Source of the DNA: Minisyncoccia bacterium
GTDB lineage: Bacteria; Patescibacteriota; Minisyncoccia; Phycocordibacterales; CALRBL01
Assembly (NCBI GenBank): GCA_038230075.1
Contig: JBBRNV010000003.1
Span: 29,329-93,328 of the forward strand
Length of the DNA: 64,000 nucleotides
Reading direction: 5' to 3'
Positions 11,924 to 55,902 of the stretch are shown here, one piece after another; position 1 is the stretch's first letter, and every line of letters starts with the position of its first letter. The notes below the pieces were generated by a model. The model was given only the letters and a program-made list of their open reading frames with translations, made no database searches and was not told where the DNA came from. Made by a program: the position numbers and the translations under genes.

Positions 11924-12514
11924 ATGGAAATTTCAAGCGACATGATTAAAGATCTTCGAGAAAAAACTGGTATCTCTGTGATGCAGTGCAAAAAAGCTCT
12001 TGAAGAGGCGGGTGGTGACATGGAAAAGGCTATTATTATTTTAAAGAAGAAAAGTTCAGCAATTGCTGAAAAGAAAGCCGATCGAGAGTTGGCAGCTGGT
12101 TCTGTAGCAGCTTATATTCACGGAAATGGCATGATTGGTGCCATGGTTGAACTTATGTCTGAAACAGACTTTGTATCTAAGAATGAAGAGTTTAAGATTT
12201 TGGCCCGAGAAATTGCAATGCAGATATCTGCAACAAATCCAAAATTTACCAAGCGTTCAGATGTCTCATCTGAAGAAATTGCAAAAGCATCAGAAGTTTT
12301 TGCAGCAGACGTTGCTGGAAAGCCTGAAGAATTGAAAGCAAAGATTCTTGAAGGAAAACTAAACGCATATTTCAAAGATCAGGTTCTACTCGAACAAGAT
12401 TATATTAAGAATCCTGAAAAAACTATTGGAAATTTGATTGAAGAAGCAACACAGAAATTTGGTGAAAAGATTGAAATTGGAAAGATTGCTCGATTTTCTC
12501 CTCTTGAAAAGTAA
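11924..12514 (+). CDS. tsf: elongation factor Ts, short form
   Basis: UBA-like N-terminus (IKDLREKTGISVMQCKKALEEAGGD); follows rpsB. Confidence 0.85.
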   Translation: MEISSDMIKDLREKTGISVMQCKKALEEAGGDMEKAIIILKKKSSAIAEKKADRELAAGSVAAYIHGNGMIGAMVELMSETDFVSKNEEFKILAREIAMQISATNPKFTKRSDVSSEEIAKASEVFAADVAGKPEELKAKILEGKLNAYFKDQVLLEQDYIKNPEKTIGNLIEEATQKFGEKIEIGKIARFSPLEK

Positions 12515-12542
12515 TATCTACGTTGGCTAAGCCAACTTCTTT

Positions 12543-12941
12543 ATGTTGATCACTTCTTACATTTTATTCTTCGCAGCTCTTCTTGTTATGACATATCTTC
12601 TTGTCTCAAAAGAGAAGAAGATTACTATTGAACATCAAACATTTGAAGCATGGTTGCTGAGTGTTATTAATAAGATAAAAATGTTTTCTCGGTACGTTAA
12701 TAAAAAAACAGCAATCCTTTTTTTCCATTTCTTTATTGATTCTATTGAAAAAGGAGTTCTCAAAACAACTTCGACGTTGAAGAAAGGTTCACTGCAATCA
12801 AAAAAGTTTAGAGGAAAAATTGCTACTGGCCTCACAAGAAAGAAGACGGGAGAACCAACTTCCTTGCCTTCAGAAGAGCAGATAATCAAAGAAATAATAG
12901 AAGAGAAGATTCCAGAAGATGGTTGGGAGTCAAAGTCGTAA
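12543..12941 (+). CDS. hypothetical membrane protein
   Basis: N-terminal TM helix, then a Lys-rich tail. Confidence 0.4.
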   Translation: MLITSYILFFAALLVMTYLLVSKEKKITIEHQTFEAWLLSVINKIKMFSRYVNKKTAILFFHFFIDSIEKGVLKTTSTLKKGSLQSKKFRGKIATGLTRKKTGEPTSLPSEEQIIKEIIEEKIPEDGWESKS

Positions 12942-13093: not shown

Positions 13094-13169
13094 GCCACCT
13101 TAGCTCAGTTGGTAGAGCAACGCTTTTGTAAAGCGAAGGTCCCCAGTTCGAATCTGGGAGGTGGCTCCA
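13094..13169 (+). tRNA. tRNA-Thr, anticodon UGU
   Basis: Acceptor GCCACCT/AGGTGGC, D-arm GCTCAGTTGGTAGAGC, anticodon loop TTTGTAA (anticodon TGT), T-arm CCCAG-TTCGAAT-CTGGG, encoded CCA. Confidence 0.85.
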
Positions 13170-18589: not shown

Positions 18590-20692
<2,103 letters not shown>

Positions 20693-20712
20693 ATAGAGAA
20701 ATAAGTTTAAAA

Positions 20713-20745
20713 ATAATAACACCTAGGTGTTATTATTTTTTTATT
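20713..20745 (+). terminator. AT-rich palindromic terminator after gyrB, probably bidirectional
   Basis: ATAACACCTAGGTGTTAT perfect palindrome with an A-run before it and a T-run after it. Confidence 0.6.
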
Positions 20746-20812
20746 TATATAGATCAGAAATGACGAAGCCCACCGATGGCGGGTTCGCCATGATGGGCTG
20801 TTTTGCAAGATA

Positions 20813-21130
20813 TCAGACGGCACTTTCTGAGAGTGTGTCGTGCAGTAAAATGGCGGTTGCGTGCATTGCTTGTTGCAGGGTGGGAATGAGTCTCGTGGCG
20901 CAACCAAACGGAGTGATGTGCGTAAGAGTGGTACCACCATCAACAAGGATGAGATAATCGAACAGGGTATCTTCTTCGAGAGGAACTCCTGCTGCCGTAA
21001 GTTCAGCAGCTTGAAGATGTTTCGAGTGGTTTTGGCTGAGATCGTCTTCGCAAGAAAGCACAACATACACTCGGTCTGGTTGTTGCGAACGTACGTAGTT
21101 TATTCGGCCCTTCAGGAGTCTTATGATCAT
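20813..21130 (-). CDS. hypothetical protein in a GC-rich island
   Basis: 105-aa ORF with GC-rich codons (LILVDGGTTL motif); overlapping + strand ORFs look less protein-like; strand assignment is tentative. Confidence 0.3.
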   Translation of the reverse strand: MIIRLLKGRINYVRSQQPDRVYVVLSCEDDLSQNHSKHLQAAELTAAGVPLEEDTLFDYLILVDGGTTLTHITPFGCATRLIPTLQQAMHATAILLHDTLSESAV

Positions 21131-21242
21131 GTCGCTAGAGTTGGGGGTGGGTGGTATTTCGATTGGGTTGATTTGGCTCGAATGTAAAGTGGTTTGAAAG
21201 AGCCTTCATAGAGACTACCGCTCACACCTACCACTGTCAAAT

Positions 21243-21277
21243 AAACAAAAAACCACCGCTTGGGTGGTCTTTTGTTG
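21243..21277 (-). terminator. rho-independent terminator for the minus-strand gene ending at 21300
   Basis: ACCACC-GCTTG-GGTGGT hairpin; on the minus strand it is followed by TTTTTTGTTT. Confidence 0.6.
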
Positions 21278-21299
21278 TAACTTCTTGTTGAATACAAGA

Positions 21300-22337
21300 T
21301 TACTGTCCGATGTTCAATGTGTTGTTTGATCGATTGATATCGTTAACTTTTGCATTCTGGTCTACAGTGATTGAACCAAAACTTTTTGTTGGACTAGTGT
21401 ATCCAAGGGTGAAGATAATGCCGTCACCTGGCTTTAATGATTTCTGTGAAGGAGATGCGTAACTTTGATTGTTTACATCAGATGAAGGAAGTGTTGCATT
21501 GAAGTTCCATGACCCAGAAACTGCTGATCCAATGTTTTGAACTTCGAATCGAACTGCTGCAATGTCTGAAGAAGTAACATCTCGCTTGAGTGTATCAAGT
21601 GATACGAACTGGTGATTCTGATTAAGAATTCCATATTTCACAAGTGTAACAGAAAGGTCTGGTGTTCCTCCGATGACTTCTTGATATTCTGATGTGTGAG
21701 TTGTTTGAGGAGCAACACTTGCTTCTGCTGGATCTCCACCTTCGTACGCTGTGTGCTGATGAGGAACCATTGTTGATGGAGGATTGATTTCTGTTCCAAG
21801 TTTAATATTGATTGAACTTGTTCCCATAGCAATGATCGATCGATCAGTGCTAGACATAAGGAAGGCTTGGAAATTACTCTTTACCTGACTTGATGTTGAA
21901 GATGCAAGATTCTGATTAAGAAGAGGTCGAAGAATAACATCGTATTCTGTTCGGTCTAATGTATTTGTTGTTGATGCAACAGGAAGAGAGAATCGCTGTC
22001 CACATTGAATAGCTTGAACAGATGCATTTCGCACAAGTTCATAGTTCGCTACATCTGAACATTCATATTGAAATGAATATGTTCCGGCAATAGTGCTAGA
22101 ATGAATAACTCGAAGCATGAATGGTTCACCTGATCGAACAACTGTTTTGTCAGGGGATACATTAAGCATTACGATTCCTGATGGAGTACTTGTTGAAGTA
22201 CCTTTAATATTTGAAAGCGCTGTTAATGCTCGAGGAATAAGTTTTACAATTCCGAAAGCAATGAGAAATAATACGACTACAATAACGATAATAAAGATGA
22301 CGCGCAGAACTTTGTATAATGTTGAATCTTGATTCAT
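21300..22337 (-). CDS. hypothetical membrane-anchored extracellular protein
   Basis: N-terminal TM helix (VLRVIFIIVIVVVLFLIAFGIV), Ser/Thr-rich beta-type sequence, no catalytic motif. Confidence 0.5.
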   Translation of the reverse strand: MNQDSTLYKVLRVIFIIVIVVVLFLIAFGIVKLIPRALTALSNIKGTSTSTPSGIVMLNVSPDKTVVRSGEPFMLRVIHSSTIAGTYSFQYECSDVANYELVRNASVQAIQCGQRFSLPVASTTNTLDRTEYDVILRPLLNQNLASSTSSQVKSNFQAFLMSSTDRSIIAMGTSSINIKLGTEINPPSTMVPHQHTAYEGGDPAEASVAPQTTHTSEYQEVIGGTPDLSVTLVKYGILNQNHQFVSLDTLKRDVTSSDIAAVRFEVQNIGSAVSGSWNFNATLPSSDVNNQSYASPSQKSLKPGDGIIFTLGYTSPTKSFGSITVDQNAKVNDINRSNNTLNIGQ

Positions 22338-22384
22338 ATGGTGAGACTATACACTGTTTTTAAGGTCCCGTCAAGTATTGATAT

Positions 22385-22413
22385 TTGACTTTTATCAACA
22401 AATGAGCTATAAT
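22385..22413 (+). promoter_or_regulatory. sigma70-like promoter for the sortase gene: TTGACT, 17 nt, TATAAT
   Basis: Near-consensus hexamers; the -10 ends 6 nt before the ATG and no SD is present, so leaderless transcription is likely. Confidence 0.55.
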
Positions 22414-22419
22414 GTTCCC

Positions 22420-23103
22420 ATGTCAAATTTGAAATCTATGTTAAAAAACTTGCTTTCTACCAACGAAATAATCTTTATTTCGATCTTTGGTCTTGTCTTT
22501 CTTTTCTCTTTTGTTGGACTCTACCTCTTTGGAGCTGTGCCTGATGAATTTCGGTACTCTATGAACAATAACTCTATTATTGATAATGTTGAATCTCTTA
22601 AAGATGGAAAGGAAGGCCTCACTAATTTACAAAATACAAATGCCGAATACGACAATAGTACTATTGGTCTTAAACCAACTCGTATTGTTATTGCAAACGC
22701 CAGTGTTGATTATGCAGTAGAAAATCCACAAAGCACTAATGTGAATATTCTCGACGAAGCCCTTAAACGTGGAGCTGTTAGATACCCAAGTTCAGGAACT
22801 CCTGATAAAGGAAATATGTTTATTTTCGGCCATAGTACGAGCTTTAAGGTGGTAAACAATAAAGCCTATGAAGTCTTTAATAACTTGAAAGAATTGAAAG
22901 CTGGAGATGATATTAAAATCATTACTGACAAAGAAACCTTTATCTATAAGGTACGAACCGTTGATCTAGTTGATAGTCGAAAAGCACTTGTTGACCTTTC
23001 AACTGACAGACACATGCTCACTCTTTCAACATGTAATAGCTTCGGAGCTAGTTCTGACCGATATGTTGTTGAAGCTGACTTTGACCACACAGAAACTATA
23101 TAG
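22420..23103 (+). CDS. sortase-family transpeptidase
   Basis: N-terminal TM anchor; conserved His (MFIFGHSTSF); catalytic Cys in TLSTC (the TLxTC sortase signature). Confidence 0.7.
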   Translation: MSNLKSMLKNLLSTNEIIFISIFGLVFLFSFVGLYLFGAVPDEFRYSMNNNSIIDNVESLKDGKEGLTNLQNTNAEYDNSTIGLKPTRIVIANASVDYAVENPQSTNVNILDEALKRGAVRYPSSGTPDKGNMFIFGHSTSFKVVNNKAYEVFNNLKELKAGDDIKIITDKETFIYKVRTVDLVDSRKALVDLSTDRHMLTLSTCNSFGASSDRYVVEADFDHTETI

Positions 23104-23157
23104 TAGGCTCTCACAAAAGTAGGGAATTACTACTCAAATAAGACCACAATGAAGTAC

Positions 23158-23185
23158 TTGACAAATCCTTTAATTATGATATGAT
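23158..23185 (+). promoter_or_regulatory. sigma70-like promoter: TTGACA, 16 nt, TATGAT, about 190 nt upstream of the GC-rich ORF
   Basis: Consensus -35 and good -10; the downstream leader holds two perfect hairpins, at 23270-23308 and 23320-23339. Confidence 0.45.
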
Positions 23186-23374
23186 AGTAAATGAAAGTAG
23201 AGTACATTAAAAACTTGTCAGACTAAAAAAAGAAAGTGTTGGTTGTAACAGGTTAAGAGATTCATTGGTGAAGGAAATAAGAACGAATTATTTGTTTTTA
23301 TTTCCTTCACTAAACAAAGTCTGCTTCTCACGAAGCAGATGGTGAATACTCAAACCCAGTAGACCCACACGACC

Positions 23375-24460
23375 ATGCCCACACCCTCCGAAATCCGCAA
23401 TCTCCGCCGCGCCGTTACCGCCGCAGCTGGAGACGTCACCCGCACGTGCTCCGAGAAGCAGGCCGCTGAGCTCGCGCTCCGCAACGCCCGTTCCGCCACC
23501 CCCGTCGTTCCCGCCAACGTGACCGCCGCTGAGCTCGCGCTCAGCAACGCCACCACCGCGCACGACGAGGCCCTAGAAGTCCACGAGGAAGCCCAAGAAG
23601 AACTCACCACCACGACTGCTCCCCAGCCGTCGTTCGTCAAGAAGAATTGGATTCCGCTCAGCATCGCTGTTGCGGCCGTCCTGGTCCTTCTCATGATGTT
23701 CATGTTCATGATGTCCCGCATCGCTTCTTCCGAAGCGCGCGCGAACAACATCGCGAACACGACCCAGACGGAGATCACCCGCCTCGAAGCCGCCAAGGCC
23801 AAGGCCACCAGCGAAGCTTCCCAGGCCGAAGCCGCCAAGGCCAAGGCTGTCGCCGAAGCCGCCAAGGCCGAAGCCGCGCGTCAGACCGCGCTCGCTGAAG
23901 CCTCCCAGGCCGAAGCCGGGCGTCTGCAAGCTGAACGCAACGCCAACGCCCTGAACGAAGCCGAAACCGCCCGCCAAAAGGCCGCCGCTCAAAAGGCCGC
24001 GTCCCTCCCAGCGAAGCGTTTCGACCTGGCCGCCGGTGAAATCCCGACCAAGCCCAGCATGTGGGCCATTGTCGAAGGAGGCATTGTAACTTCGAACACC
24101 TTGGCCAACTCCAAGCAGTTCGTGCCAGCAATGGGTGACACGATCGTCCTCACCGACGCCGTGACCCTCATCCATGTCGAGATGCCCCTCCTGAACAAGG
24201 ACGGATCGCCCGCCATGCGCGCCGACGGTATCACTCCCGTCGGAAAAGTTTGCATCTTCAAAGGCATCGGCATCGACGGACAGCGTTACGACTTCGCCCT
24301 CAAGGGAGGTCTGCGTGTGACCTTCGTCCCGCAGGGTAGCAATGGCAAGGTGCGTGAGCAAGAGCTCGCGACCCAGCTGCCTTCCGGCAATCGGCCAACC
24401 GCGGTTCAGACTCCGATGGTGCCCGTTCGTCGCGCCATTGCGGTTCCTCCAAAGTCCTGA
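23375..24460 (+). CDS. hypothetical single-pass membrane protein with an Ala/Glu/Lys-rich coiled-coil; about 65% GC island
   Basis: GC3-rich codons on the + strand, central TM helix (PLSIAVAAVLVLLMMFMFMM), AEAAKAKA repeats, duplicated AAELAL(R/S)NA segment. Confidence 0.55.
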   Translation: MPTPSEIRNLRRAVTAAAGDVTRTCSEKQAAELALRNARSATPVVPANVTAAELALSNATTAHDEALEVHEEAQEELTTTTAPQPSFVKKNWIPLSIAVAAVLVLLMMFMFMMSRIASSEARANNIANTTQTEITRLEAAKAKATSEASQAEAAKAKAVAEAAKAEAARQTALAEASQAEAGRLQAERNANALNEAETARQKAAAQKAASLPAKRFDLAAGEIPTKPSMWAIVEGGIVTSNTLANSKQFVPAMGDTIVLTDAVTLIHVEMPLLNKDGSPAMRADGITPVGKVCIFKGIGIDGQRYDFALKGGLRVTFVPQGSNGKVREQELATQLPSGNRPTAVQTPMVPVRRAIAVPPKS

Positions 24461-24491
24461 CAAGTCTACTCCAACAGGAGTCCCACTAAGT

Positions 24492-24545
24492 GGCCAGCAA
24501 GTAATCGAGTTCGCTCGAAATCCTTTGCTGGCCATTTTTGTTTAT
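24492..24545 (+). terminator. hairpin with T-run after the GC-rich ORF
   Basis: GGCCAGCAA ... TTGCTGGCC stem (24-nt loop), followed by ATTTTTGTTT. Confidence 0.4.
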
Positions 24546-24628
24546 ATGATTTGACTTTTTATACTATCTAATGTATAATGATTCTACTTATCCGTAAGAC
24601 GATAGGTTATCAAATTAATAATACTTTT

Positions 24629-26338
24629 ATGAACACATATACAATTATCAAAAAATTATCAGCAGGATTTCTAATCTTCGCTACTATTGCGGTATTTTCA
24701 GTGTCACAAGTGACACCTGTTCGTGCAGACGGAGAAGATGAAGGTGATGGATATGCAACGAACTACTTTGGTTCAGGTTCAGACTTTGGATCATATGGAT
24801 CAAATTACGAAACTCCTTCATATGCAACTAATTACGAAACACCGTCTTACGCAACAAACTATACTCCATACGCTACAAACTACAATTCTCCATCTTACGC
24901 TTCAAACTTTGATGCATTCGCAACAAACTACCAAACTCCTACATACGTAACAGACTACGGAGCTTTCGCAACAAACTATCAGACAACATCATATGTAACT
25001 GATTACGGAGCATACGCTACCAACTATGAAACTCCTACATATGCAACAAACTACCAAACTCCTACATATGCAACAGACTACGGAGCTTATGCAACAAACT
25101 ACCAAACTCCTACATATGCAACAGACTACGGAGCTTATGCAAGTAATTACCAGACTCCATCATACGCAACAGACTATGTTGCTTTTGCAACAGACTATGG
25201 TGCTTTCGCAACAAATTATAACTACCCAACAAACACATCATGTTCAACTTGTGGAACTACGTATAACCCAACTACATGTTCAACATGTGGATCAAGTTAC
25301 ACACCCACAACATATGTAAGTACACCTTCTTACAACTACCCAACAAACACATCATGTTCAACTTGTGGCACTTCATATGTTCCTCCAGTTCGAACACCAA
25401 CATATAACCCTCCGGTTTACACACCTACAACATACACACAGCCACCTACATACACTCCTCCAACATATGTTCCTCCTGTGCGATGTACAACTTGTGGAAC
25501 AATTCCTACAACACCTGTAGTGTATAATCCACCAACATACAATCCTCCTACATATAACCCTCCAACGTATATTCCTCCAGTTTACAACCCACCTGTATAC
25601 ATTCCTCCAACAACTTGTTCAACATGTAACTATGTTCCTCCTACCTACAATCCTCCAGTTTATTACAACAATAACTACACAGCATATTGTGTAGGAACAA
25701 CACGAGGAAACTCAATTGAATGGAATATCTTCATTACAAACAACATCTACCACTTTACTCCAATAGTGTCATGGACAGGATCAAACGGATTCTATGGATA
25801 CGGTTCAACTGCTACTTACACATATCCAAACGGAGGTGTGCAGACAGCAAATGCAACTGTTAACTTGAATGGTCAGATTCAGAATGTGTCATGTACTTCA
25901 ACAACTGGTGGTGGATACGTTTCAGTTAATGAAAATCCAGGTGGAGTATATCTAAGTTCAATTCCTGCTACTGGCCTCTCAGCCAATATGAAGAACGTTC
26001 TCTTCATGGTAGGACTCCTTATGTGGTCAGCCTTCCTTGCATACATGTACGTTGCACGACGAAACTCTTCAATGAAATTCGCTCATGCACTTAACGGAAA
26101 TGCAGCAGGAGACTCTGTCTCAGAAGATGCAAGCGCATCAACTGAAGTAATAAGTCAGTCAGTTGATTCAAAAATCTCTGATATGGCTCGAGCAAAGAAT
26201 GTACTTCTTTCACACGACGCACTTCAATCTCTTGTAAATGCAGGTGAGTCACATGCATCAGCTGTACTTGCAAAGGTTGCAAACAATGGTGAATGGTCAA
26301 CTCTGAACAAAGCGAAAGTAGAAGAATTGTTAGGATAA
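24629..26338 (+). CDS. secreted repetitive surface protein with a C-terminal TM helix
   Basis: Signal peptide; tandem YATNYQTPT-type repeats; PPTYNPPVY Pro-rich repeats; three NTSCSTCG(T/S) units; IPATG followed by a hydrophobic helix and RR, then a roughly 100-aa tail. Confidence 0.65.
   Translation: MNTYTIIKKLSAGFLIFATIAVFSVSQVTPVRADGEDEGDGYATNYFGSGSDFGSYGSNYETPSYATNYETPSYATNYTPYATNYNSPSYASNFDAFATNYQTPTYVTDYGAFATNYQTTSYVTDYGAYATNYETPTYATNYQTPTYATDYGAYATNYQTPTYATDYGAYASNYQTPSYATDYVAFATDYGAFATNYNYPTNTSCSTCGTTYNPTTCSTCGSSYTPTTYVSTPSYNYPTNTSCSTCGTSYVPPVRTPTYNPPVYTPTTYTQPPTYTPPTYVPPVRCTTCGTIPTTPVVYNPPTYNPPTYNPPTYIPPVYNPPVYIPPTTCSTCNYVPPTYNPPVYYNNNYTAYCVGTTRGNSIEWNIFITNNIYHFTPIVSWTGSNGFYGYGSTATYTYPNGGVQTANATVNLNGQIQNVSCTSTTGGGYVSVNENPGGVYLSSIPATGLSANMKNVLFMVGLLMWSAFLAYMYVARRNSSMKFAHALNGNAAGDSVSEDASASTEVISQSVDSKISDMARAKNVLLSHDALQSLVNAGESHASAVLAKVANNGEWSTLNKAKVEELLG
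24770..25215 (+). repeat. in-frame tandem nucleotide repeats (27-nt and about 54-nt periods) encoding YATNY/YATDYGA units
   Basis: Near-identical copies such as actcctacatatgcaacagactacggagcttatgcaacaaactaccaa occur repeatedly. Confidence 0.8.
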
Positions 26339-30047: not shown

Positions 30048-30800
30048 ATGTCGGTCAACCCAAAACCCCATGTTCCTATGTCAGAACCTAAAGAGAAAAA
30101 CAAAGACATTCGCTTAGCCCTCGAGGCGGCAGGAGTGGTCCACCGTGGTCACTTTGTTTACAGCAAACCAGACCCTGCTGGCCAAGGAGATCATGGTGAA
30201 GTCTACGTCAACAAAGACGGGATCTATACCAAACCCGAGTTCGTTCGTGATCTCTGTGAAGAAATGGCTGATGAATTGCGGCCTATTATCGCTCAGTTTC
30301 CGAACGCGTCAGTCGTCGTCGGACCAGAGAAGGGTGGGATCATTCTTGCTCAGTGGCTGGCCTTCAGCCTGAACCTTTTGCTTGAGGCACAAGGAAGTGA
30401 GCCTTGCTTTCGCGCTGTCTTTGCAGAAAAGAAGGCCGGAGGTGGCTTCTTTCTCGGTCGTGGTTACGACTTAATCGTTCGCGACCGAGATGTCATTGTC
30501 GTCGAAGACATCCTCAACTCGGGCGGGAGCGCCAAACAGGCTGTTGCTGCAGTTCGTGACGCGGGAGGAAATCCTGTTGCACTCACTGCCATTTGGAATC
30601 GAGGTGGTGTGACCGCGGGTATGATTGGTGGCCCACATCTGTTTTCGCTCGTCGATATGCAGTTCAAGAAATACACGTGGCAAGCATGTCCAATGTGTGC
30701 GGAGGGAGTTCCAGTTCGCACCGACCTCGGCCACGGTCAGGCATTCCTCGATCGCATGCAAATGCGCGTTCTCGATGGTCGAAATACACCACTCGATTGA
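30048..30800 (+). CDS. type I phosphoribosyltransferase (orotate PRTase-like); GC-rich gene
   Basis: PRPP-binding loop DVIVVEDILNSGGSA; about 58% GC with GC3-rich codons; start codon uncertain (30048 or 30078). Confidence 0.6.
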   Translation: MSVNPKPHVPMSEPKEKNKDIRLALEAAGVVHRGHFVYSKPDPAGQGDHGEVYVNKDGIYTKPEFVRDLCEEMADELRPIIAQFPNASVVVGPEKGGIILAQWLAFSLNLLLEAQGSEPCFRAVFAEKKAGGGFFLGRGYDLIVRDRDVIVVEDILNSGGSAKQAVAAVRDAGGNPVALTAIWNRGGVTAGMIGGPHLFSLVDMQFKKYTWQACPMCAEGVPVRTDLGHGQAFLDRMQMRVLDGRNTPLD

Positions 30801-30821
30801 AGGTGTGACTGATTGCCAATG

Positions 30822-30860
30822 CAAAAGGCGGAGTCTCTCGCGAGACTCCGCCTTTTCACA
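30822..30860. terminator. GC-rich bidirectional terminator between the PRTase gene and typA
   Basis: GGCGGAGTCTC-TCGC-GAGACTCCGCC 11-bp stem flanked by AAAA and TTTTC. Confidence 0.75.
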
Positions 30861-30871
30861 TTCCAATATTT

Positions 30872-32674
30872 TTATTTTCGCGCGTACTTTGCTCGGTCAG
30901 TTTTTGTTAAGAATTTTTTTCGAAGTCGAGTTGAAGTTGGAGTGATTTCTAAATATTCGTCTTCATTCATTAATTCAAGTCCTCGTTCAATGGTGACTTC
31001 AAGTGGGGGAACCAAGTAAATAGTATCGTCTGATCCTGAGGCTCGCATGTTGGTGAGTTGCTTTCCTTTGGTTGGATTCACATCGAGATCTTCTCCTTTT
31101 GATGTATTTCCAATAACCATTCCATCGTACACTTCGGTACTTGGTCCGATATAGAGCACTCCTCGTTCTTGAAGATTTCCAAGAGAGAAGCCTAGAGCCT
31201 TTCCATTTTCCATTGAAACCATTGAACCAACTTCTCTTTTTTCAATCACACCTGCATATTCTTTAAATTCCATAAATCGAGAACTGAGAATTCCTTCTCC
31301 TTTCGTATCAATCACGAATTGATTTCGAAAACCAAGAAGACCTCGAGTTGGAATATCAAATGTCATTCGAGTAATACCTCGATCGCTATGCATGTTGGTC
31401 ATGATTCCTTTTCTTTTTCCCATTTTTTCAATGACAGTTCCAGAAGTTGTGTCAGGTACGTCGATAATTGCTTCTTCATACGGCTCCATTTTCTTTCCAG
31501 CTTCTTCTTTGATAATTACCTGAGGCTGAGAAACTTGAAGTTCATATCCTTCTCGTCGCATGTTCTCAAGAAGTACGGCAATGTGAAGTTCTCCTCGTCC
31601 AAACACTTTAAAATATTCAGATGATGAAAAATCAACTCGAAGACCAACGTTGATTTCAAGTTCTTTTTCAAGTCGATCTCGAATCTGTCGAGTTGTTACG
31701 TATTTTCCTTCTCGTCCTGCAAATGGTGAGTCGTTCACAAAAAAGTTCAAAGAAATAGTTGGTTCGTCGATGGTGATTGAAGGAAGGGGAAGTTGATCTG
31801 CATTTTCACACACGGTTTCTCCAATGTAGATGTCTGAGATTCCTGCAATCATGACAATATCTCCTGCAATTGCTTCCTGCACTTCTTTTTTAGTTGAGCC
31901 TTCGAAGGTGTAGAGTTTAGTAATTCGAGCTTGTCGTGTTTCAGCAACTTCAGCTCCAGGAGCTAGAGGTTTTTTAATGAAAACATTTTGACCCATTTTG
32001 ATAGTTCCTTTATAGATTCGGGCAACAGCCATTCGTCCGAGAAAGTTGTCATATGCGAGGTTGAATGGTTGTGCTTCAAGCGGAGCAGACACGTCGTTCG
32101 CAGCTGCCGGAACTTTTTCAAGAACGGTATCGAGAAGAGGATTCAATGTTTTTGAATCATCGTTTATGTGTCGTTTTGCAATTCCGTCTCGTCCAATTGC
32201 GTATACAGTTGTGAAATCGAGTTGTTCATCAGTTGCTCCAAGTTCCATGAAAAGTTCAAATACTTCGTCGTGTACTCGATCAGGATTTGCTGCGGGCTTA
32301 TCAATTTTATTTAAAATAACAATGGGCTTCAAACCAAGTTCAAGAGACTTTTTGAGAACGAATCGAGTTTGAGGCATAGGACCTTCTTGAGCGTCGACAA
32401 CTAAAAGCACACAGTCGATAGATCGGAGTACTCGTTCAACTTCTGAACCGAAGTCGGCATGACCTGGTGTATCTACAATATTAATTTTTGTATCTTTGTA
32501 GAAAAGAGAGGTGTTTTTGGCATAAATCGTAATACCACGCTCTCGTTCGAGATCGTTTGAGTCCATACTTCCAGCATCTCCTTTAACAGAACCAGTCTGC
32601 TTAAGAAGGGCGTCAGTAAGGGTGGTTTTGCCGTGGTCCACGTGAGCGATGATTGCAATGTTGCGAATTTCCAT
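30872..32674 (-). CDS. typA: translational GTPase TypA/BipA
   Basis: AHVDHGKTTL G1 motif, DTPGHADF, NKID; about 600 aa with the BipA-type C-terminal domain. Confidence 0.9.
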   Translation of the reverse strand: MEIRNIAIIAHVDHGKTTLTDALLKQTGSVKGDAGSMDSNDLERERGITIYAKNTSLFYKDTKINIVDTPGHADFGSEVERVLRSIDCVLLVVDAQEGPMPQTRFVLKKSLELGLKPIVILNKIDKPAANPDRVHDEVFELFMELGATDEQLDFTTVYAIGRDGIAKRHINDDSKTLNPLLDTVLEKVPAAANDVSAPLEAQPFNLAYDNFLGRMAVARIYKGTIKMGQNVFIKKPLAPGAEVAETRQARITKLYTFEGSTKKEVQEAIAGDIVMIAGISDIYIGETVCENADQLPLPSITIDEPTISLNFFVNDSPFAGREGKYVTTRQIRDRLEKELEINVGLRVDFSSSEYFKVFGRGELHIAVLLENMRREGYELQVSQPQVIIKEEAGKKMEPYEEAIIDVPDTTSGTVIEKMGKRKGIMTNMHSDRGITRMTFDIPTRGLLGFRNQFVIDTKGEGILSSRFMEFKEYAGVIEKREVGSMVSMENGKALGFSLGNLQERGVLYIGPSTEVYDGMVIGNTSKGEDLDVNPTKGKQLTNMRASGSDDTIYLVPPLEVTIERGLELMNEDEYLEITPTSTRLRKKFLTKTDRAKYARK

Positions 32675-36479: not shown

Positions 36480-37718
36480 ATGAATATCAGACATTACGCA
36501 CATGCTTCGTTTATCGGATTGAAAACAAATCTTGTACGATCAATTCTTACCATTCTAGGTATTGTTATTGGTATCGCATCAATTATTTTGATTGTTTCAC
36601 TTGGAAATGGAGCACAAAATTTGATTCTTGATCAGGTGAAAGGATTGGGAACTCGAACCATTATTATTTCAGCAGGAGGTGATGCGGCTGGCCCTCCAAA
36701 CAGAACTCAATCAACAAAGGTGTCACTTAAGCAACGAGACGTAGATGCACTTGAACAGAAATCAAATGCACCGCATATTTCAAAGGTTATGCCCTTGGTT
36801 AATGGAGCGGGAACTGCTGAAGTTGGTTCAAATAGTTATCGAATCTCGCTTTTTGGAGCAACCGATGCTATGTCTGAAATATATTCTTTAGTACCTGTAG
36901 AAGGGAGCTTTTTTGCTGAAGAAGAGGTACGCTCATCAAGTGATGTGGTAGTTATCGGATCTGAAGTAAAAAATCAGTTATATCCTAATGAAGATGCACT
37001 TGGAAAAAGAATTAAAATCGAAGGACATAACTTTGTCATTGTTGGAGTTCTTCCCTCAAAAGGTTCAAGTGCTTTAATTAACTTCGATAAAGCTGCGATC
37101 ATTCCATATACAACTGCTCAAAATTATATCTTTGGTACAAAATATTTTAATAATATTGTGGTTGAGTCTGATAGTGAAAAAACTATTGCACTTTCTGTTG
37201 ATGACATTAAAAATACCCTTCGAACATTACATAAAATTGAAGATCCAACAAAAGACGACTTTCAAGTTCAAAATCAAGCTGACCTTTCAAATCGGTTAAG
37301 TATCATCACTGATGTTCTGACATATTTCTTAGCAGCAGTTGCTGCAATCTCACTTCTTGTGGGAGGAATTGGTATTATGAATATTATGCTCGTTTCTGTT
37401 ACTGAGAGAACTCGTGAAATTGGTCTTCGAAAAGCAGTTGGGGCAACCAATCGAAATATTCTCATTCAATTTCTTTTGGAAGCAGTGTATCTCACACTCG
37501 CGGGAGGAATTGTTGGGGTGTTAATTGGAACAACACTTTCACTCATCGCTTCATTTTTGATTATTAAAGTATTTGGTTTCGATTGGACATTCATCTTTCC
37601 ATACAGTGCTGCAATTATTGGAGTTGCTGTGTCTGCTGTTGTTGGTCTCGTCTTTGGATTGTATCCTGCTCGTCAGGCTTCAAAGAAAAGTCCGATTGAA
37701 GCACTTCGGTACGAATAA
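36480..37718 (+). CDS. MacB/FtsX-family ABC transporter permease
   Basis: N-terminal TM helix, a large periplasmic domain and a C-terminal three-TM FtsX-like bundle. Confidence 0.8.
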   Translation: MNIRHYAHASFIGLKTNLVRSILTILGIVIGIASIILIVSLGNGAQNLILDQVKGLGTRTIIISAGGDAAGPPNRTQSTKVSLKQRDVDALEQKSNAPHISKVMPLVNGAGTAEVGSNSYRISLFGATDAMSEIYSLVPVEGSFFAEEEVRSSSDVVVIGSEVKNQLYPNEDALGKRIKIEGHNFVIVGVLPSKGSSALINFDKAAIIPYTTAQNYIFGTKYFNNIVVESDSEKTIALSVDDIKNTLRTLHKIEDPTKDDFQVQNQADLSNRLSIITDVLTYFLAAVAAISLLVGGIGIMNIMLVSVTERTREIGLRKAVGATNRNILIQFLLEAVYLTLAGGIVGVLIGTTLSLIASFLIIKVFGFDWTFIFPYSAAIIGVAVSAVVGLVFGLYPARQASKKSPIEALRYE

Positions 37719-37724
37719 GAGAAA

Positions 37725-37752
37725 GGGCGCACGACTTGCGTGCGCCCGATCG
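37725..37752. terminator. GC-rich bidirectional terminator
   Basis: GGGCGCACG-ACTTG-CGTGCGCCC hairpin plus a CCCGATCGGG mini-palindrome; T-rich sequence on both strands. Confidence 0.65.
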
Positions 37753-37768
37753 GGTGATTTTTCCGGCC

Positions 37769-38122
37769 TCAATAGCCGGACTTTCCCGGATGAAACCACC
37801 AGCCTTTGCGAAGAGGTTTGGTGTTTTCTGTTCGGGATGCTTCGGGTTGAGTGGTCTTTTGCCAAAAGTTTTGACGCCACTTGGTGAAGGGATCGTTGAT
37901 GTTCCGCTCAAACCAGTCTTCGAAGGGGCTGCAGAGCAGCTTCAAGAGCGAGACAGTCAAGAAGGTTGCCAAAACAGAGCCGACAACCAAGATCTTAACG
38001 AAGTGGAAGGGGTCATTGAAGAGCATCCAGAAGGTGAGGAAGAGCAGTGCGGCCGAGATGGCGAACATCTTGATGAACCAAATGAAAGAGCGAGGTTGTG
38101 GGGCGGGTTTCGATTTTTTCAT
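37769..38122 (-). CDS. hypothetical small two-TM membrane protein; GC-rich cassette
   Basis: 117-aa ORF with GC3-rich codons and two hydrophobic helices; the overlapping + strand ORF (37736..38200) is less protein-like. Confidence 0.5.
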   Translation of the reverse strand: MKKSKPAPQPRSFIWFIKMFAISAALLFLTFWMLFNDPFHFVKILVVGSVLATFLTVSLLKLLCSPFEDWFERNINDPFTKWRQNFWQKTTQPEASRTENTKPLRKGWWFHPGKSGY

Positions 38123-38190
38123 GAATCAGTTGAGCGGGGGGTTGGGGTTCAGAATCTTTATATAACACTTTTACTACAATGTCAAAGTAT

Positions 38191-52720: not shown

Positions 52721-53020
52721 TTAGTTGCGCAACCGAATGCTTAAGGGGCCAATGTTGATGGCGGAAAGCCGTTGCGCCAACTTCTGACGCTGCTGCGGAG
52801 GAGTAGTATGGTTGAAACCACCATGAGTGGTTGGAGGGACAAACTTTTGACCTTCAGGTTGCATGATCGGATAGAGCCGACCATCTTTCAACAAGTAGGC
52901 CACATGGACCAATTTCTTGGTTGGGCGGCGCGCAGGCTGCTGAGCCTGTGCGGAAGGGGTGAAGATGACGGAGGTGAAGGCGAACACGAGGAGCGCCAAG
53001 ACGAGTTTGAGGATGTTGTT
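52721..53020 (-). CDS. hypothetical small secreted protein; GC-rich cassette
   Basis: Signal peptide (LALLVFAFTSVIFTPSAQA), GC3-rich codons; start set at the Met that begins the signal peptide. Confidence 0.5.
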   Translation of the reverse strand, partial: NNILKLVLALLVFAFTSVIFTPSAQAQQPARRPTKKLVHVAYLLKDGRLYPIMQPEGQKFVPPTTHGGFNHTTPPQQRQKLAQRLSAINIGPLSIRLRN

Positions 53021-53146
53021 CATGCTATCTAAAGCCAGGCTAACTAGCTTCACATAGCATGAACACATCGAAGAACTTTACTATCGTATTATACCATATT
53101 ACTGATAAATGTCAATTAATCAGACAACATTAAACCAGCCTTTATG

Positions 53147-55027: not shown

Positions 55028-55759
55028 CTAGCCGCCAGGAGTGTAGATCGGCATCTCCTTAAACTTGAGACGACGAATCAGGTCGGTGAGGATGAGTCGA
55101 ACCACTTGGTCTCGATTCATATCAGTATTGTCGATTTCCATCGAACAAGGATGCCTCACGAATGGTGAAACCGATCTTTCGGTATCGTGCCTGTCGCGCT
55201 TCTGGAGCCCTTGTACGATCTCTGCGTACGTTTGTTCGGGCTGATCTTTCGGCTGATCCTTAAAGCGGCGAGCTGCTCTCGTGGCGACCTCGGCGGTGAT
55301 GAAGTAGCCGCTGCACCGACCGTTTTCGGCGTCGAAGATTTTTCTCATGTCCCGACCTTCGGGCACGAGACCAGGCAGTTGCCTGCGGGACATCTGATAG
55401 TCGTGCATCATCGCACGTACTTCTGGTATTGCGCTGACAGCGGAAACCCGATCCGAGCAAGCCTTGTAGCGAATTTCTTCGGTGACTTCGATTTCACCGA
55501 CGAAAACCTTCCCATCGACGAACGTTGTCGGATACTGAAGTGCGACTTCGATCACATTGTTCGGATTGGTGATGTCGATACCGTGGACGATGGTGAGGTG
55601 TGCCACCGACCGGTAGAGAGCGCCGCTGTCGAGGTGTTTGAAGCCGAGAATTCGAGCAAGCTCACGAGCGGTCGAACTTTTGCCGGATCCGCCAGGACCA
55701 TCGATGGCGATAACTTCTGCGAGTAGATTAGGAGGTGTTAGTTGAGTGAGGGTGGCCAT
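55028..55759 (-). CDS. cmk: cytidylate kinase; GC-rich gene
   Basis: IAIDGPGGSGKSSTARELARILGFKHLDSGALYR matches the Cmk P-loop/NMP-binding signature; GC3-rich codons, about 55% GC. Confidence 0.8.
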   Translation of the reverse strand: MATLTQLTPPNLLAEVIAIDGPGGSGKSSTARELARILGFKHLDSGALYRSVAHLTIVHGIDITNPNNVIEVALQYPTTFVDGKVFVGEIEVTEEIRYKACSDRVSAVSAIPEVRAMMHDYQMSRRQLPGLVPEGRDMRKIFDAENGRCSGYFITAEVATRAARRFKDQPKDQPEQTYAEIVQGLQKRDRHDTERSVSPFVRHPCSMEIDNTDMNRDQVVRLILTDLIRRLKFKEMPIYTPGG

Positions 55760-55902
55760 TCGGCCTCCTTTCTTTTTCGAGGGGTGAAACTGTGGGTGAG
55801 GTTCGTCTTCGAAACACATGTATGAGTCAAAGAAGAGCTTTCAATAGAGTAGTGGTTTAGAGCATTAAAGTCAAACCATATATTACAACAAAGAGAATAA
55901 CT

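Follow-up and report, generated by a model that had tools for sequence, protein, structure and literature searches.

A GC-rich gene in a surface-protein locus

The window analysed here is a stretch of 64,000 nucleotides (nts) from a Minisyncoccia bacterium (contig JBBRNV010000003.1 of GenBank assembly GCA_038230075.1), and the coordinates given for it count from its first letter. On its plus strand, at 23375..24460, lies the coding sequence of a 361-amino acid (aa) orphan protein, predicted to be bitopic and to belong to the cell envelope, whose GC content is far above that of its surroundings. A sortase gene is directly upstream (22378..23103, plus strand, likely start at 22420 for a product of 227 aa; Pfam PF04203, E = 1e-19), with the gene for a CARDB-like membrane protein on its other side. 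Downstream are the promoter (24551-79) and coding sequence of a gene for a 586-aa Tyr/Thr/Asn-rich repeat protein (together 24551..26338, plus strand). Judged by the predicted products, the region of the sortase, the 361-aa gene and the 586-aa gene is a cell-surface locus; the wider neighbours, pheST, gyrB, hisS, truB and bipA, are housekeeping genes. Going by its predicted signals, the 361-aa gene is a stand-alone transcription unit with its own promoter, a folded leader and its own terminator. The interpretation tentatively preferred below is that of a conserved expression site, whose regulatory parts belong to the lineage and into which the present coding sequence has been swapped laterally.

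The segment 23345-24537 has a GC content of 0.624 and the coding sequence one of 0.637 (an initial annotation, made from the letters of the sequence, had put it at about 65%). The 1 kb to the left has 0.345, the leader 0.32 and the 1 kb to the right 0.383, and the shift is complete within about 50 nts on either flank of the segment; the sharp boundaries with AT-rich DNA reported in the initial annotation are borne out by this GC profile. Stretches of the same length, 1193 nts, in the remainder of the window have a mean GC of 0.380 (standard deviation 0.029, maximum 0.50), and the segment lies 8 standard deviations above it. GC at first, second and third codon positions (GC1, GC2 and GC3) is 0.65, 0.51 and 0.75, with C at 50% and G at 26% of third positions, versus a GC3 of 0.24-0.29 in seven host genes, in which A- and T-ending codons are preferred throughout. 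The codon usage is as unlike that of the neighbours as had been claimed. Translational selection for C-ending codons was considered as a cause and rejected, since in rpsB and tsf, which are highly expressed, C occupies 9-15% of third positions.

The order GC3 > GC1 > GC2, typical of genes from GC-rich genomes, is found in the plus-strand frame only; among antisense open reading frames (ORFs), that of 320 aa has GC1 > GC3 > GC2 and that of 171 aa GC3 > GC2 > GC1. The antisense product is of low complexity and rich in Gly and Arg, and the plus-strand product has a transmembrane (TM) helix and coherent domains. On these features of the sequence, the 23375-24460 ORF is a genuine protein-coding gene. 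The GC-rich segment is not chimeric because an independent assembler gives both junctions identically: Logan contig SRR19962015_28961 (4359 nts) has 100% identity to 20711-25069 and covers the two of them. Exact-protein look-ups (hisS, the 345-aa gene and the sortase) led to a contig of the window strain solely in SRR19962015, and three others looked up in this way gave no record.

The encoded protein

An AlphaFold model of the 361-aa protein, computed without an alignment, is confident for the helices only. Residues 1-80 (23375..23614, plus strand, as are the other features of the gene) would form a cytoplasmic helical hairpin, with helices 4-40 and 46-80 modelled at a predicted local distance difference test score (pLDDT) of 83-94. 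Each of these helices carries one copy of the motif AAELAL(R/S)NA, the product of a 27-nt duplication that the initial annotation had pointed out and that is confirmed at 23462-88 and 23525-51 (96% identity). A single TM helix, with KK just before it, is assigned to residues 92-113 (23648..23713) from a hydropathy scan, the sequence and the modelled helix. Residues 114-210 (23714..24004) are predicted, from repeats and the AlphaFold model, to be an extracytoplasmic helical stalk rich in Ala, Glu and Lys (37% Ala); Ala/Lys/Glu repeats with a 42-nt period are at 23785-23910, and residues 96-210 are modelled as one continuous helix. Last comes a head, residues ~216-335 (24020..24379), for which β strands are predicted at a pLDDT below 50, and then a Pro-rich tail to the stop codon. 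Modelled alone, the C-terminal domain has a pLDDT of 41. As to layout, the alanine-rich single-pass protein of the initial annotation keeps its cytoplasmic N-terminal domain, TM helix and helical stalk, and its globular C-terminal domain is replaced by a β-rich head predicted with low confidence. A sorting signal made of an LPXTG/LAXTG motif, hydrophobic segment and basic tail was not found in the protein or in its two positional counterparts, which are described below.

Promoter, leader and terminator

The promoter at 23158..23185 (plus strand), earlier called near-consensus and confirmed as such, is of the sigma-70 type: TTGACA, 16 nts and then TGaTATGAT, an extended −10, with 11 of 12 consensus positions matched. 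Transcription is predicted to start at ~23191, which gives a 5′ leader of ~184 nts (23191..23374, plus strand) that is AT-rich (0.32 GC) and structured (minimum free energy, MFE, −59.4 kcal/mol, z = −5.7). Within it there is neither a Shine-Dalgarno (SD) sequence nor a −10 box adjoining the AUG. MFE folds give a core at 23260..23347, in which a closing helix, P0 (23260-65 with 23342-47), surrounds two hairpins, P1 and P2. P1 (23266..23312) is long and AU-rich, with 22 bp, G-U pairs included, and an invariant GAAAUA/UAUUUC core; P2 (23319..23340) is short and GC-richer, its stem having 9 bp and its loop the sequence UCAC (z = −5.2), and when read on the minus strand it resembles a terminator by score as well. 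Both hairpins had been seen in the initial annotation, though their stems had been drawn too short, at 11 and 8 bp. Beyond the core, 23236-59 and 23349-70 form outer helices that stop 4 nts 5′ of the AUG. The hairpin and T-run noted earlier after the stop codon are likewise confirmed, as an intrinsic terminator (24488..24545, plus strand) with a 13-bp GC-rich stem (24488-24537) containing an inner mini-hairpin, then UUUUUGUUU (z = −5.5). No covariance model of Rfam 15 matches anything within 20600-24700 even at E ≤ 1.

Two kinds of short ORF are present in the leader. A 7-codon mini-ORF at 23339-23362 (ATG GTG AAT ACT CAA ACC CAG TAG) overlaps P0 in its 3′ strand, and exactly 12 nts separate its end from the main AUG downstream. 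The related locus L089 (introduced below) has a 7-codon mini-ORF of its own at 969-992 (TTG GAG AGA TTC TCA CAA TGT TAG) with the same 12-nt spacing, and at the related locus L084 the homologous TTG (11012 onward) shares the reading frame of the main ORF. The mini-ORF could be a matter of translational coupling or of chance. An 11-codon ORF at 23191-23226 (MKVEYIKNLSD*) starts 5 nts past the −10 box and lies immediately ahead of the folded region of the leader; its L089 equivalent (814-849, MFFENFTLSLS*) starts 12 nts past the −10 box, and L084 has no start codon at the position, so that this ORF is not conserved in all three.

Relatives at the same slot

Relatives were found by a sortase search, and their loci were labelled L084, L085 and L089, with L086, L088 and L091 as outgroups. 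The sortase P0002 of L084, from metagenome-assembled genome (MAG) GCA_038227435.1, is 58% identical to that of the window. L085 is a Logan contig from the same sample as L084, with 99.98% identity to it, and L089, with sortase P0003 (49% identity), is on a Logan contig from another sample, SRR13208896. A neighbour-joining tree of 70 sortases groups those of the window, L084 and L089 in a single clade. Synteny with L084 extends over GT2-x-pheS-pheT-gyrB-CARDB-sortase and that with L089 over sortase-X-Tyr-rich protein-hisS-truB-RRM.

Promoter plus leader has a GC content of 0.30-0.32 in each of the three and can be aligned among them, TTGACAA and the extended −10 TGATA being invariant. An nhmmer profile of the leader, run across 1.5 Mb of related loci, matches these three loci only. 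Folded independently, the three leaders have the same P0-P1-P2 layout (z = −5.7, −8.8 and −5.6). With the register of P1 taken from its invariant motif, 8 of its 17 basal pairs are altered on both sides yet still paired across the three genomes. P0 and P2 keep their pairing with wholly different sequences, which is weaker evidence than that of P1 as their register is set by structure. The homology of the leaders ends with the 3′ strand of P0, and it is from there that GC rises, 20-40 nts before each AUG. Equivalent terminators follow the GC-rich genes of L084 and L089. Going by these alignments, promoter and leader are native and clade-conserved, and the coding sequence alone is compositionally foreign; in the window, high GC upstream of the AUG is confined to the last ~20-30 nts.

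The genes concerned are, like that of the window, directly 3′ of the sortase gene. The one in L084 (11051-11884) has a GC content of 0.59 and a GC3 of 0.63, and the one in L089 (1005-2258) 0.56 and 0.50, in surrounding DNA of 0.36-0.39 GC. Both products are predicted to be bitopic: the N-terminus would be cytoplasmic, and after a single TM helix come a stalk, helical or Pro-rich, and a small C-terminal domain rich in β structure; the lengths of N-terminal part and stalk differ among the three proteins. There is no significant similarity between the window, L084 and L089 proteins (BLASTP E ≥ 0.19), and Smith-Waterman scores of the C-terminal domains against shuffles give z ≤ 2.1. The N-termini of the window and L084 proteins are weakly similar (z = 3.3-3.4, equalled by 4 of 500-1000 shuffles); a match at their very start, PTxTPP with MPTPS, was dismissed because it is not above shuffled controls. 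The positional counterparts have no Pfam matches and no IMG/VR relatives. The neighbouring CARDB-like and Tyr-rich surface proteins, although fast-evolving, retain 32-33% identity (the 586-aa protein 32% with its L089 counterpart) and core proteins 46-77%. Neither GC3 (0.75, 0.63 and 0.50) nor the balance of C and G at third positions is equal among the three genes. In the outgroups, a large surface protein gene begins 47-92 nts after the sortase gene, and extra gene and leader are absent.

The initial annotation had held that similarly GC-rich homologues in AT-rich relatives would speak against import. GC-rich genes of the same architecture do exist in such relatives at the same locus, but sequence homology with them is not demonstrable.

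L084 has a second GC-rich gene, convergent with the first (12094-12786, minus strand, 230 aa, GC 0.58), with its own AT-rich promoter region and terminator. Its product, without a Pfam family, has a signal peptide, is rich in Gln, Arg and Val and contains a Cys cluster (QCCTNCG...CICC). GC-rich genes for secreted proteins are also found elsewhere in AT-rich Paceibacteria, where they recur as families (GC ~0.52-0.61, GC3 0.51-0.78). Those at L008 (16786-18128) and L016 (16994-18531), both on the minus strand and with synteny over 20 kb, have a GC3 of 0.70-0.78 in genomes of 0.39-0.43 GC and an identity of 32-42%. A further pair, L063 626-1423 and L068 887-1738, has 72% identity; the L063 protein, the sole member of this pair scanned, contains a PEP-CTERM motif, which is unexpected in this group.

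Searches for homologues

A homologue search with the 361-aa protein, envisaged in the initial annotation, came back empty. A word-index search with the whole protein and, separately, with the C-terminal domain gave none, nor did an exhaustive phmmer (HMMER) search in which the C-terminal 155 aa were compared with 1.84 billion representatives. Scans at the DNA level of GTDB genomes, IMG/VR and JGI metagenomes, confirmed by tblastn and sensitive to close relatives only, found no relatives of the protein, and tblastn against phages and plasmids found no matches; blastn matches to phages were discounted as low-complexity Ala repeats only. Pfam, PHROGs, NCBIfam, PADLOC and PDB returned sub-threshold compositional matches only, to a TolA stalk, an Rz spanin and the PknB juxtamembrane region. 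JGI metagenomes were also scanned with the sortase for closer strains, and none was found.

Protein databases rely on gene callers, at least one of which missed the plus strand here: the Logan annotation of 23288-24535 has antisense ORFs (320 aa at 23573-24535, and one of 91 aa) and not the plus-strand ORF, and because of this no record exists of the exact 361-aa protein. In AT-rich MAGs, miscalling of GC-rich genes may be systematic and keep them out of protein databases, and such omissions would inflate apparent orphan status.

Origin of the coding sequence

The interpretation preferred here, at a probability of roughly 0.45, is that the expression site is conserved and its GC-rich cargo turns over, with the present coding sequence swapped in laterally. 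The site, in the sortase/surface-protein locus, would consist of the strong sigma-70-type promoter, the folded leader and the intrinsic terminator, all belonging to the lineage and common to the three known members of the sortase clade. The cargo would be a GC-rich coding sequence from a GC-richer gene pool, for instance that of other Patescibacteria or their mobile DNA. It may have replaced a functionally equivalent allele, with retention of the resident promoter and leader, after the split from the nearest sampled relative. Turnover is favoured because the coding sequences are unrelated while the neighbours are still recognisable, because GC3 and third-base preferences differ among the three genes and the lengths of N-terminal part and stalk among the three proteins, because L084 holds an extra GC-rich gene at the site, and because the step in composition coincides with the end of leader homology. 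It is also favoured because gene exchange is documented in Patescibacteria: horizontal transfer, mostly from Patescibacteria to Patescibacteria, involves up to 13% of genome length (mSystems 2025, PMC12455944).

Several points weigh against this interpretation. No flanking direct repeats beyond chance length, integrase, transposase or tRNA are found at the site (among the annotated neighbours, which over 10 kb to the left and 14 kb to the right are housekeeping, transport and unannotated genes, there is no integrase or transposase domain, and tRNAs are at least 10 kb from the 361-aa gene). No donor or homologue of the coding sequence is present in any collection searched, and recent import is unproven. 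The identical architecture in three genomes fits vertical descent equally well, and, as the L008 and L016 sequences suggest, GC-rich genes can persist vertically in AT-rich genomes. The clade is known from three genomes only.

Vertical descent is the strongest competitor, though a less probable one. One gene would have been in the slot since the ancestor of the three genomes, hyper-diverged and with its GC-rich composition, third positions included, upheld by an active process. That process might be selection, acting on codon choice or on the mRNA, or else GC-biased gene conversion in a locus that recombines. The three genomes agree in the gene's position and orientation, its promoter, leader and terminator and the bitopic plan of its product, mobility signatures are absent, the syntenic genes of L008 and L016 hold their GC3 of 0.70-0.78 at only 42% identity, and there is the weak N-terminal similarity between window and L084. 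Vertical descent does not sit well with C-terminal domains at z ≤ 2.1 when neighbouring CARDB-like and Tyr-rich proteins are still 32-33% identical, and a single shared equilibrium does not predict the spread of GC3 from 0.75 through 0.63 to 0.50. The low C at third positions of rpsB and tsf means that translational selection for C-ending codons is not seen, and there is no known mechanism for holding one gene 50 points above genomic GC3.

A broader idea, somewhat less probable again, is that AT-rich Paceibacteria keep fast-evolving genes for secreted and envelope proteins in a persistent GC-rich regime, third positions included, and that these are inherited or exchanged at fixed loci. In the present clade one of them would then be driven through an undescribed structured leader RNA, which would enable or control the translation of a leadered mRNA in an organism whose mRNAs are otherwise leaderless and without SD sequences.

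To the initial annotation, promoter, leader, coding sequence and terminator together looked like an imported, self-contained cassette, perhaps from a high-GC organism, and this was weighed here as a recent import of the whole unit. The sharp boundaries, a GC3 of 0.75 and foreign codon use are as such an import would have them, but the promoter and the leader of ~184 nts are AT-rich (0.32 GC) and resemble the host, two AT-rich relatives have them too, with covariation, GC-rich genes are in the same slot of those relatives, and neither a donor nor a homologue has been found for an origin in a high-GC organism; the cassette is accordingly very improbable and the origin suggested for it is not supported. 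Equally improbable is that the segment is a structured non-coding RNA, or that the 320-aa antisense ORF (23573-24535) is the real gene. Long ORFs do arise by chance in DNA of 64% GC and the Logan gene caller did choose the antisense ones, but the codon-position periodicity fits the plus frame only, it is the plus-strand product that has a TM helix and coherent domains rather than Gly/Arg-rich low complexity, promoter and terminator are oriented for the plus strand, and Rfam has no match at E ≤ 1. Least probable of all is an artefact, a chimeric join or the mis-assembly of contaminant DNA into a Paceibacteria contig, which the extreme contrast of composition in a MAG, and an organism known from one sample only, might bring to mind, but which is at odds with the exact reproduction of both junctions by an independent assembler, the position of the insert exactly between conserved leader and terminator with the next gene's promoter following, the same arrangement in two other genomes (one from a different sample) and the reproduction of L084 by a Logan contig at 99.98% identity.

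Possible roles of leader and protein

The organism seems to initiate mainly without leaders. A −10-like hexamer, often TATAAT or TATGAT, is 5-13 nts upstream of 28 of 41 gene starts (for example 10106, 11179, 11924, 18599, 45385 and 57691) versus 20% of random positions, and SD-like tetramers are upstream of only ~6 of 34; this suggests, from sequence features alone, that leaderless mRNAs are mainly used. With neither an SD sequence nor an adjoining −10 box, the 361-aa gene is an exception with a true leader, predicted at ~184 nts. The leader probably acts in cis, and since its hairpins are structurally conserved in relatives a cis-regulatory or stabilising role is plausible; to that extent the riboregulator suggested in the initial annotation survives. 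In a mostly leaderless, SD-poor organism it may set mRNA stability or translation. By analogy with ompA or S-layer leaders it could stabilise the mRNA; alternatively, as its outer helices stop 4 nts short of the AUG, it could act as a gate on the initiation of translation. Being without an Rfam family, the leader is a candidate RNA motif, and it offers a handle on the translation of leadered mRNA in an apparently leaderless organism.

The protein would be anchored with its N-terminus in and its helical hairpin in the cytoplasm, and a stalk of ~95 Ala/Glu/Lys-rich residues would carry the β-rich head through the wall, perhaps for contact or adhesion. Its place in a sortase/adhesin-like locus may point to a role in surface contact. 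If the site is one for hypervariable surface proteins, its product is likely to take part in contact between cells or in interaction with a host, in a lineage of uncultivated episymbionts, and the site would be a place to seek the origin of GC-rich accessory genes in genomes of the Candidate Phyla Radiation (CPR). Foreign composition here does not amount to an imported cassette: the regulatory shell appears native and the coding cargo alien.

The host and the rest of the window

The best relatives of HisRS are from Paceibacteria/Parcubacteria MAGs (Taylorbacteria-like) with an identity of at most 56%, and because of this low identity the window, from a Paceibacteria host, is assigned to a poorly sampled CPR lineage. 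Next to the 361-aa gene, the 586-aa protein (24578-26338) has IPATG, a hydrophobic stretch and ARR near residue 462, which resembles a sortase sorting signal; some 85 residues follow it, which is unusual for such a signal. The protein also has many repeats of the ATNY(Q/E)TP(S/T)Y type, CSTCG motifs and Pro-rich PPTY/PPVY repeats.

The host genome is compositionally patchy beyond the 361-aa gene. A GC content of 0.53-0.59 is reached elsewhere in the window at 55028-55819 (minus strand), ~30200-30900 (plus strand), 52721-53068 (minus strand) and 37600-38150. The raised-GC genes include one for a 263-aa protein that contains the P-loop motif GxxGxGKS and, judged by eye, looks like a cytidylate kinase, one for a phosphoribosyltransferase and one for a 115-aa protein with a signal-peptide-like N-terminus; the stretch at 37.6-38.15 kb contains overlapping ORFs. 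Between the stop codon of gyrB and the 3′ end of the CARDB-like gene is a spacer of ~600 nts (20693-21299) with GC near 0.50 and positive GC skew. Its best ORF (105 aa, minus strand, 20813-21130; GC1, GC2 and GC3 of 0.62, 0.40 and 0.45) is without a Pfam family, the spacer has no Rfam match at E ≤ 1, and an equivalent spacer is absent from L084. The only RNA genes in the 64 kb, at Rfam gathering thresholds, are those for tRNA-Thr(UGU) and tRNA-Thr(CGU) (13094-13169 and 326-399).

Comparison with known systems

Among known proteins, TolA (TIGR02794) offers a similar general plan, a membrane anchor followed by a long Ala/Lys/Glu-rich helical stalk and a small C-terminal globular domain. An Ala/Lys/Glu-rich domain II after the TM anchor is present in the 361-aa protein, but the likeness is compositional only (15.8 bits, E = 0.006, against a cut-off of 59). 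Residues 207-361 contain no Pfam or NCBIfam domain, hence no recognisable TolA/TonB-type domain III, and have no PDB sequence relative at E < 0.04, the TM helix comes after a cytoplasmic helical hairpin of 90 residues, and no tolQ, tolR, tolB or pal is nearby, the neighbours being sortase, surface proteins, gyrB, pheST, hisS and truB. CPR bacteria that use sortases are generally assumed to be without an outer membrane. As modelled, the 361-aa protein is TolA-like in architecture without TolA membership. The Rz-like i-spanins of phages (PHROG 312) share with it a TM helix and then an Ala-rich coiled coil, with a weak match over the TM helix and stalk (E = 0.005). It differs from them in its extra N-terminal domain and β head, no holin, endolysin, o-spanin or phage genes are nearby, and there are no matches in the phage databases.

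Two kinds of exchangeable DNA were considered and rejected. An integron cassette is contradicted by inspection of 24488-24537, which is a plain terminator with a T-run and has none of the RYYYAAC/GTTRRRY cores of an attC site; there is also no integron integrase among the annotated neighbours. The target of a diversity-generating retroelement was rejected as no island segment has a second copy longer than 17 nts in the window.

The 361-aa gene resembles the horizontally acquired islands of Patescibacteria (PMC12455944) in being an accessory gene whose composition is atypical of the Paceibacteria genome that carries it. Viewed as an acquired islet, it is unlike the host in composition (GC 0.62 versus 0.38, GC3 0.75 versus ~0.27), and as to an empty site, clade relatives hold a different GC-rich gene in it while in the more distant outgroups it is empty. 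It differs from the islands in being a single coding sequence with no mobility genes or identifiable donor, set in what appear to be a clade-conserved native promoter and leader, and in that the counterparts in relatives are also GC-rich.

Hypervariable surface loci of atypical GC are well known from O-antigen (rfb) and capsule loci and from the allele replacement of flagellin and S-layer genes. The likeness is in the conserved flanks and regulation, the centre diverged beyond recognition, the composition unlike that of the genome and the product destined for the cell surface; the differences are that a single small gene is involved here and not a cluster, that it is GC-rich and not AT-rich, and that its allele exchange is proposed from comparison of the three loci.

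Some abundant mRNAs for envelope proteins have structured 5′ untranslated regions, such as the 5′ stem-loops of ompA and the leaders of S-layer genes. The 361-aa gene is like these in the strength of its predicted promoter and terminator, in its long leader containing stable hairpins and in coding for a predicted envelope protein. There is no sequence or Rfam relationship, the hairpins here are ~45 nts from the predicted 5′ end, and the present host otherwise seems leaderless. In kind, what lies next to the sortase gene is a variation on things already known, a compositionally atypical orphan gene for an accessory surface protein within an envelope locus that varies; what is new is that its leader RNA is conserved and that GC-rich genes recur at one slot.

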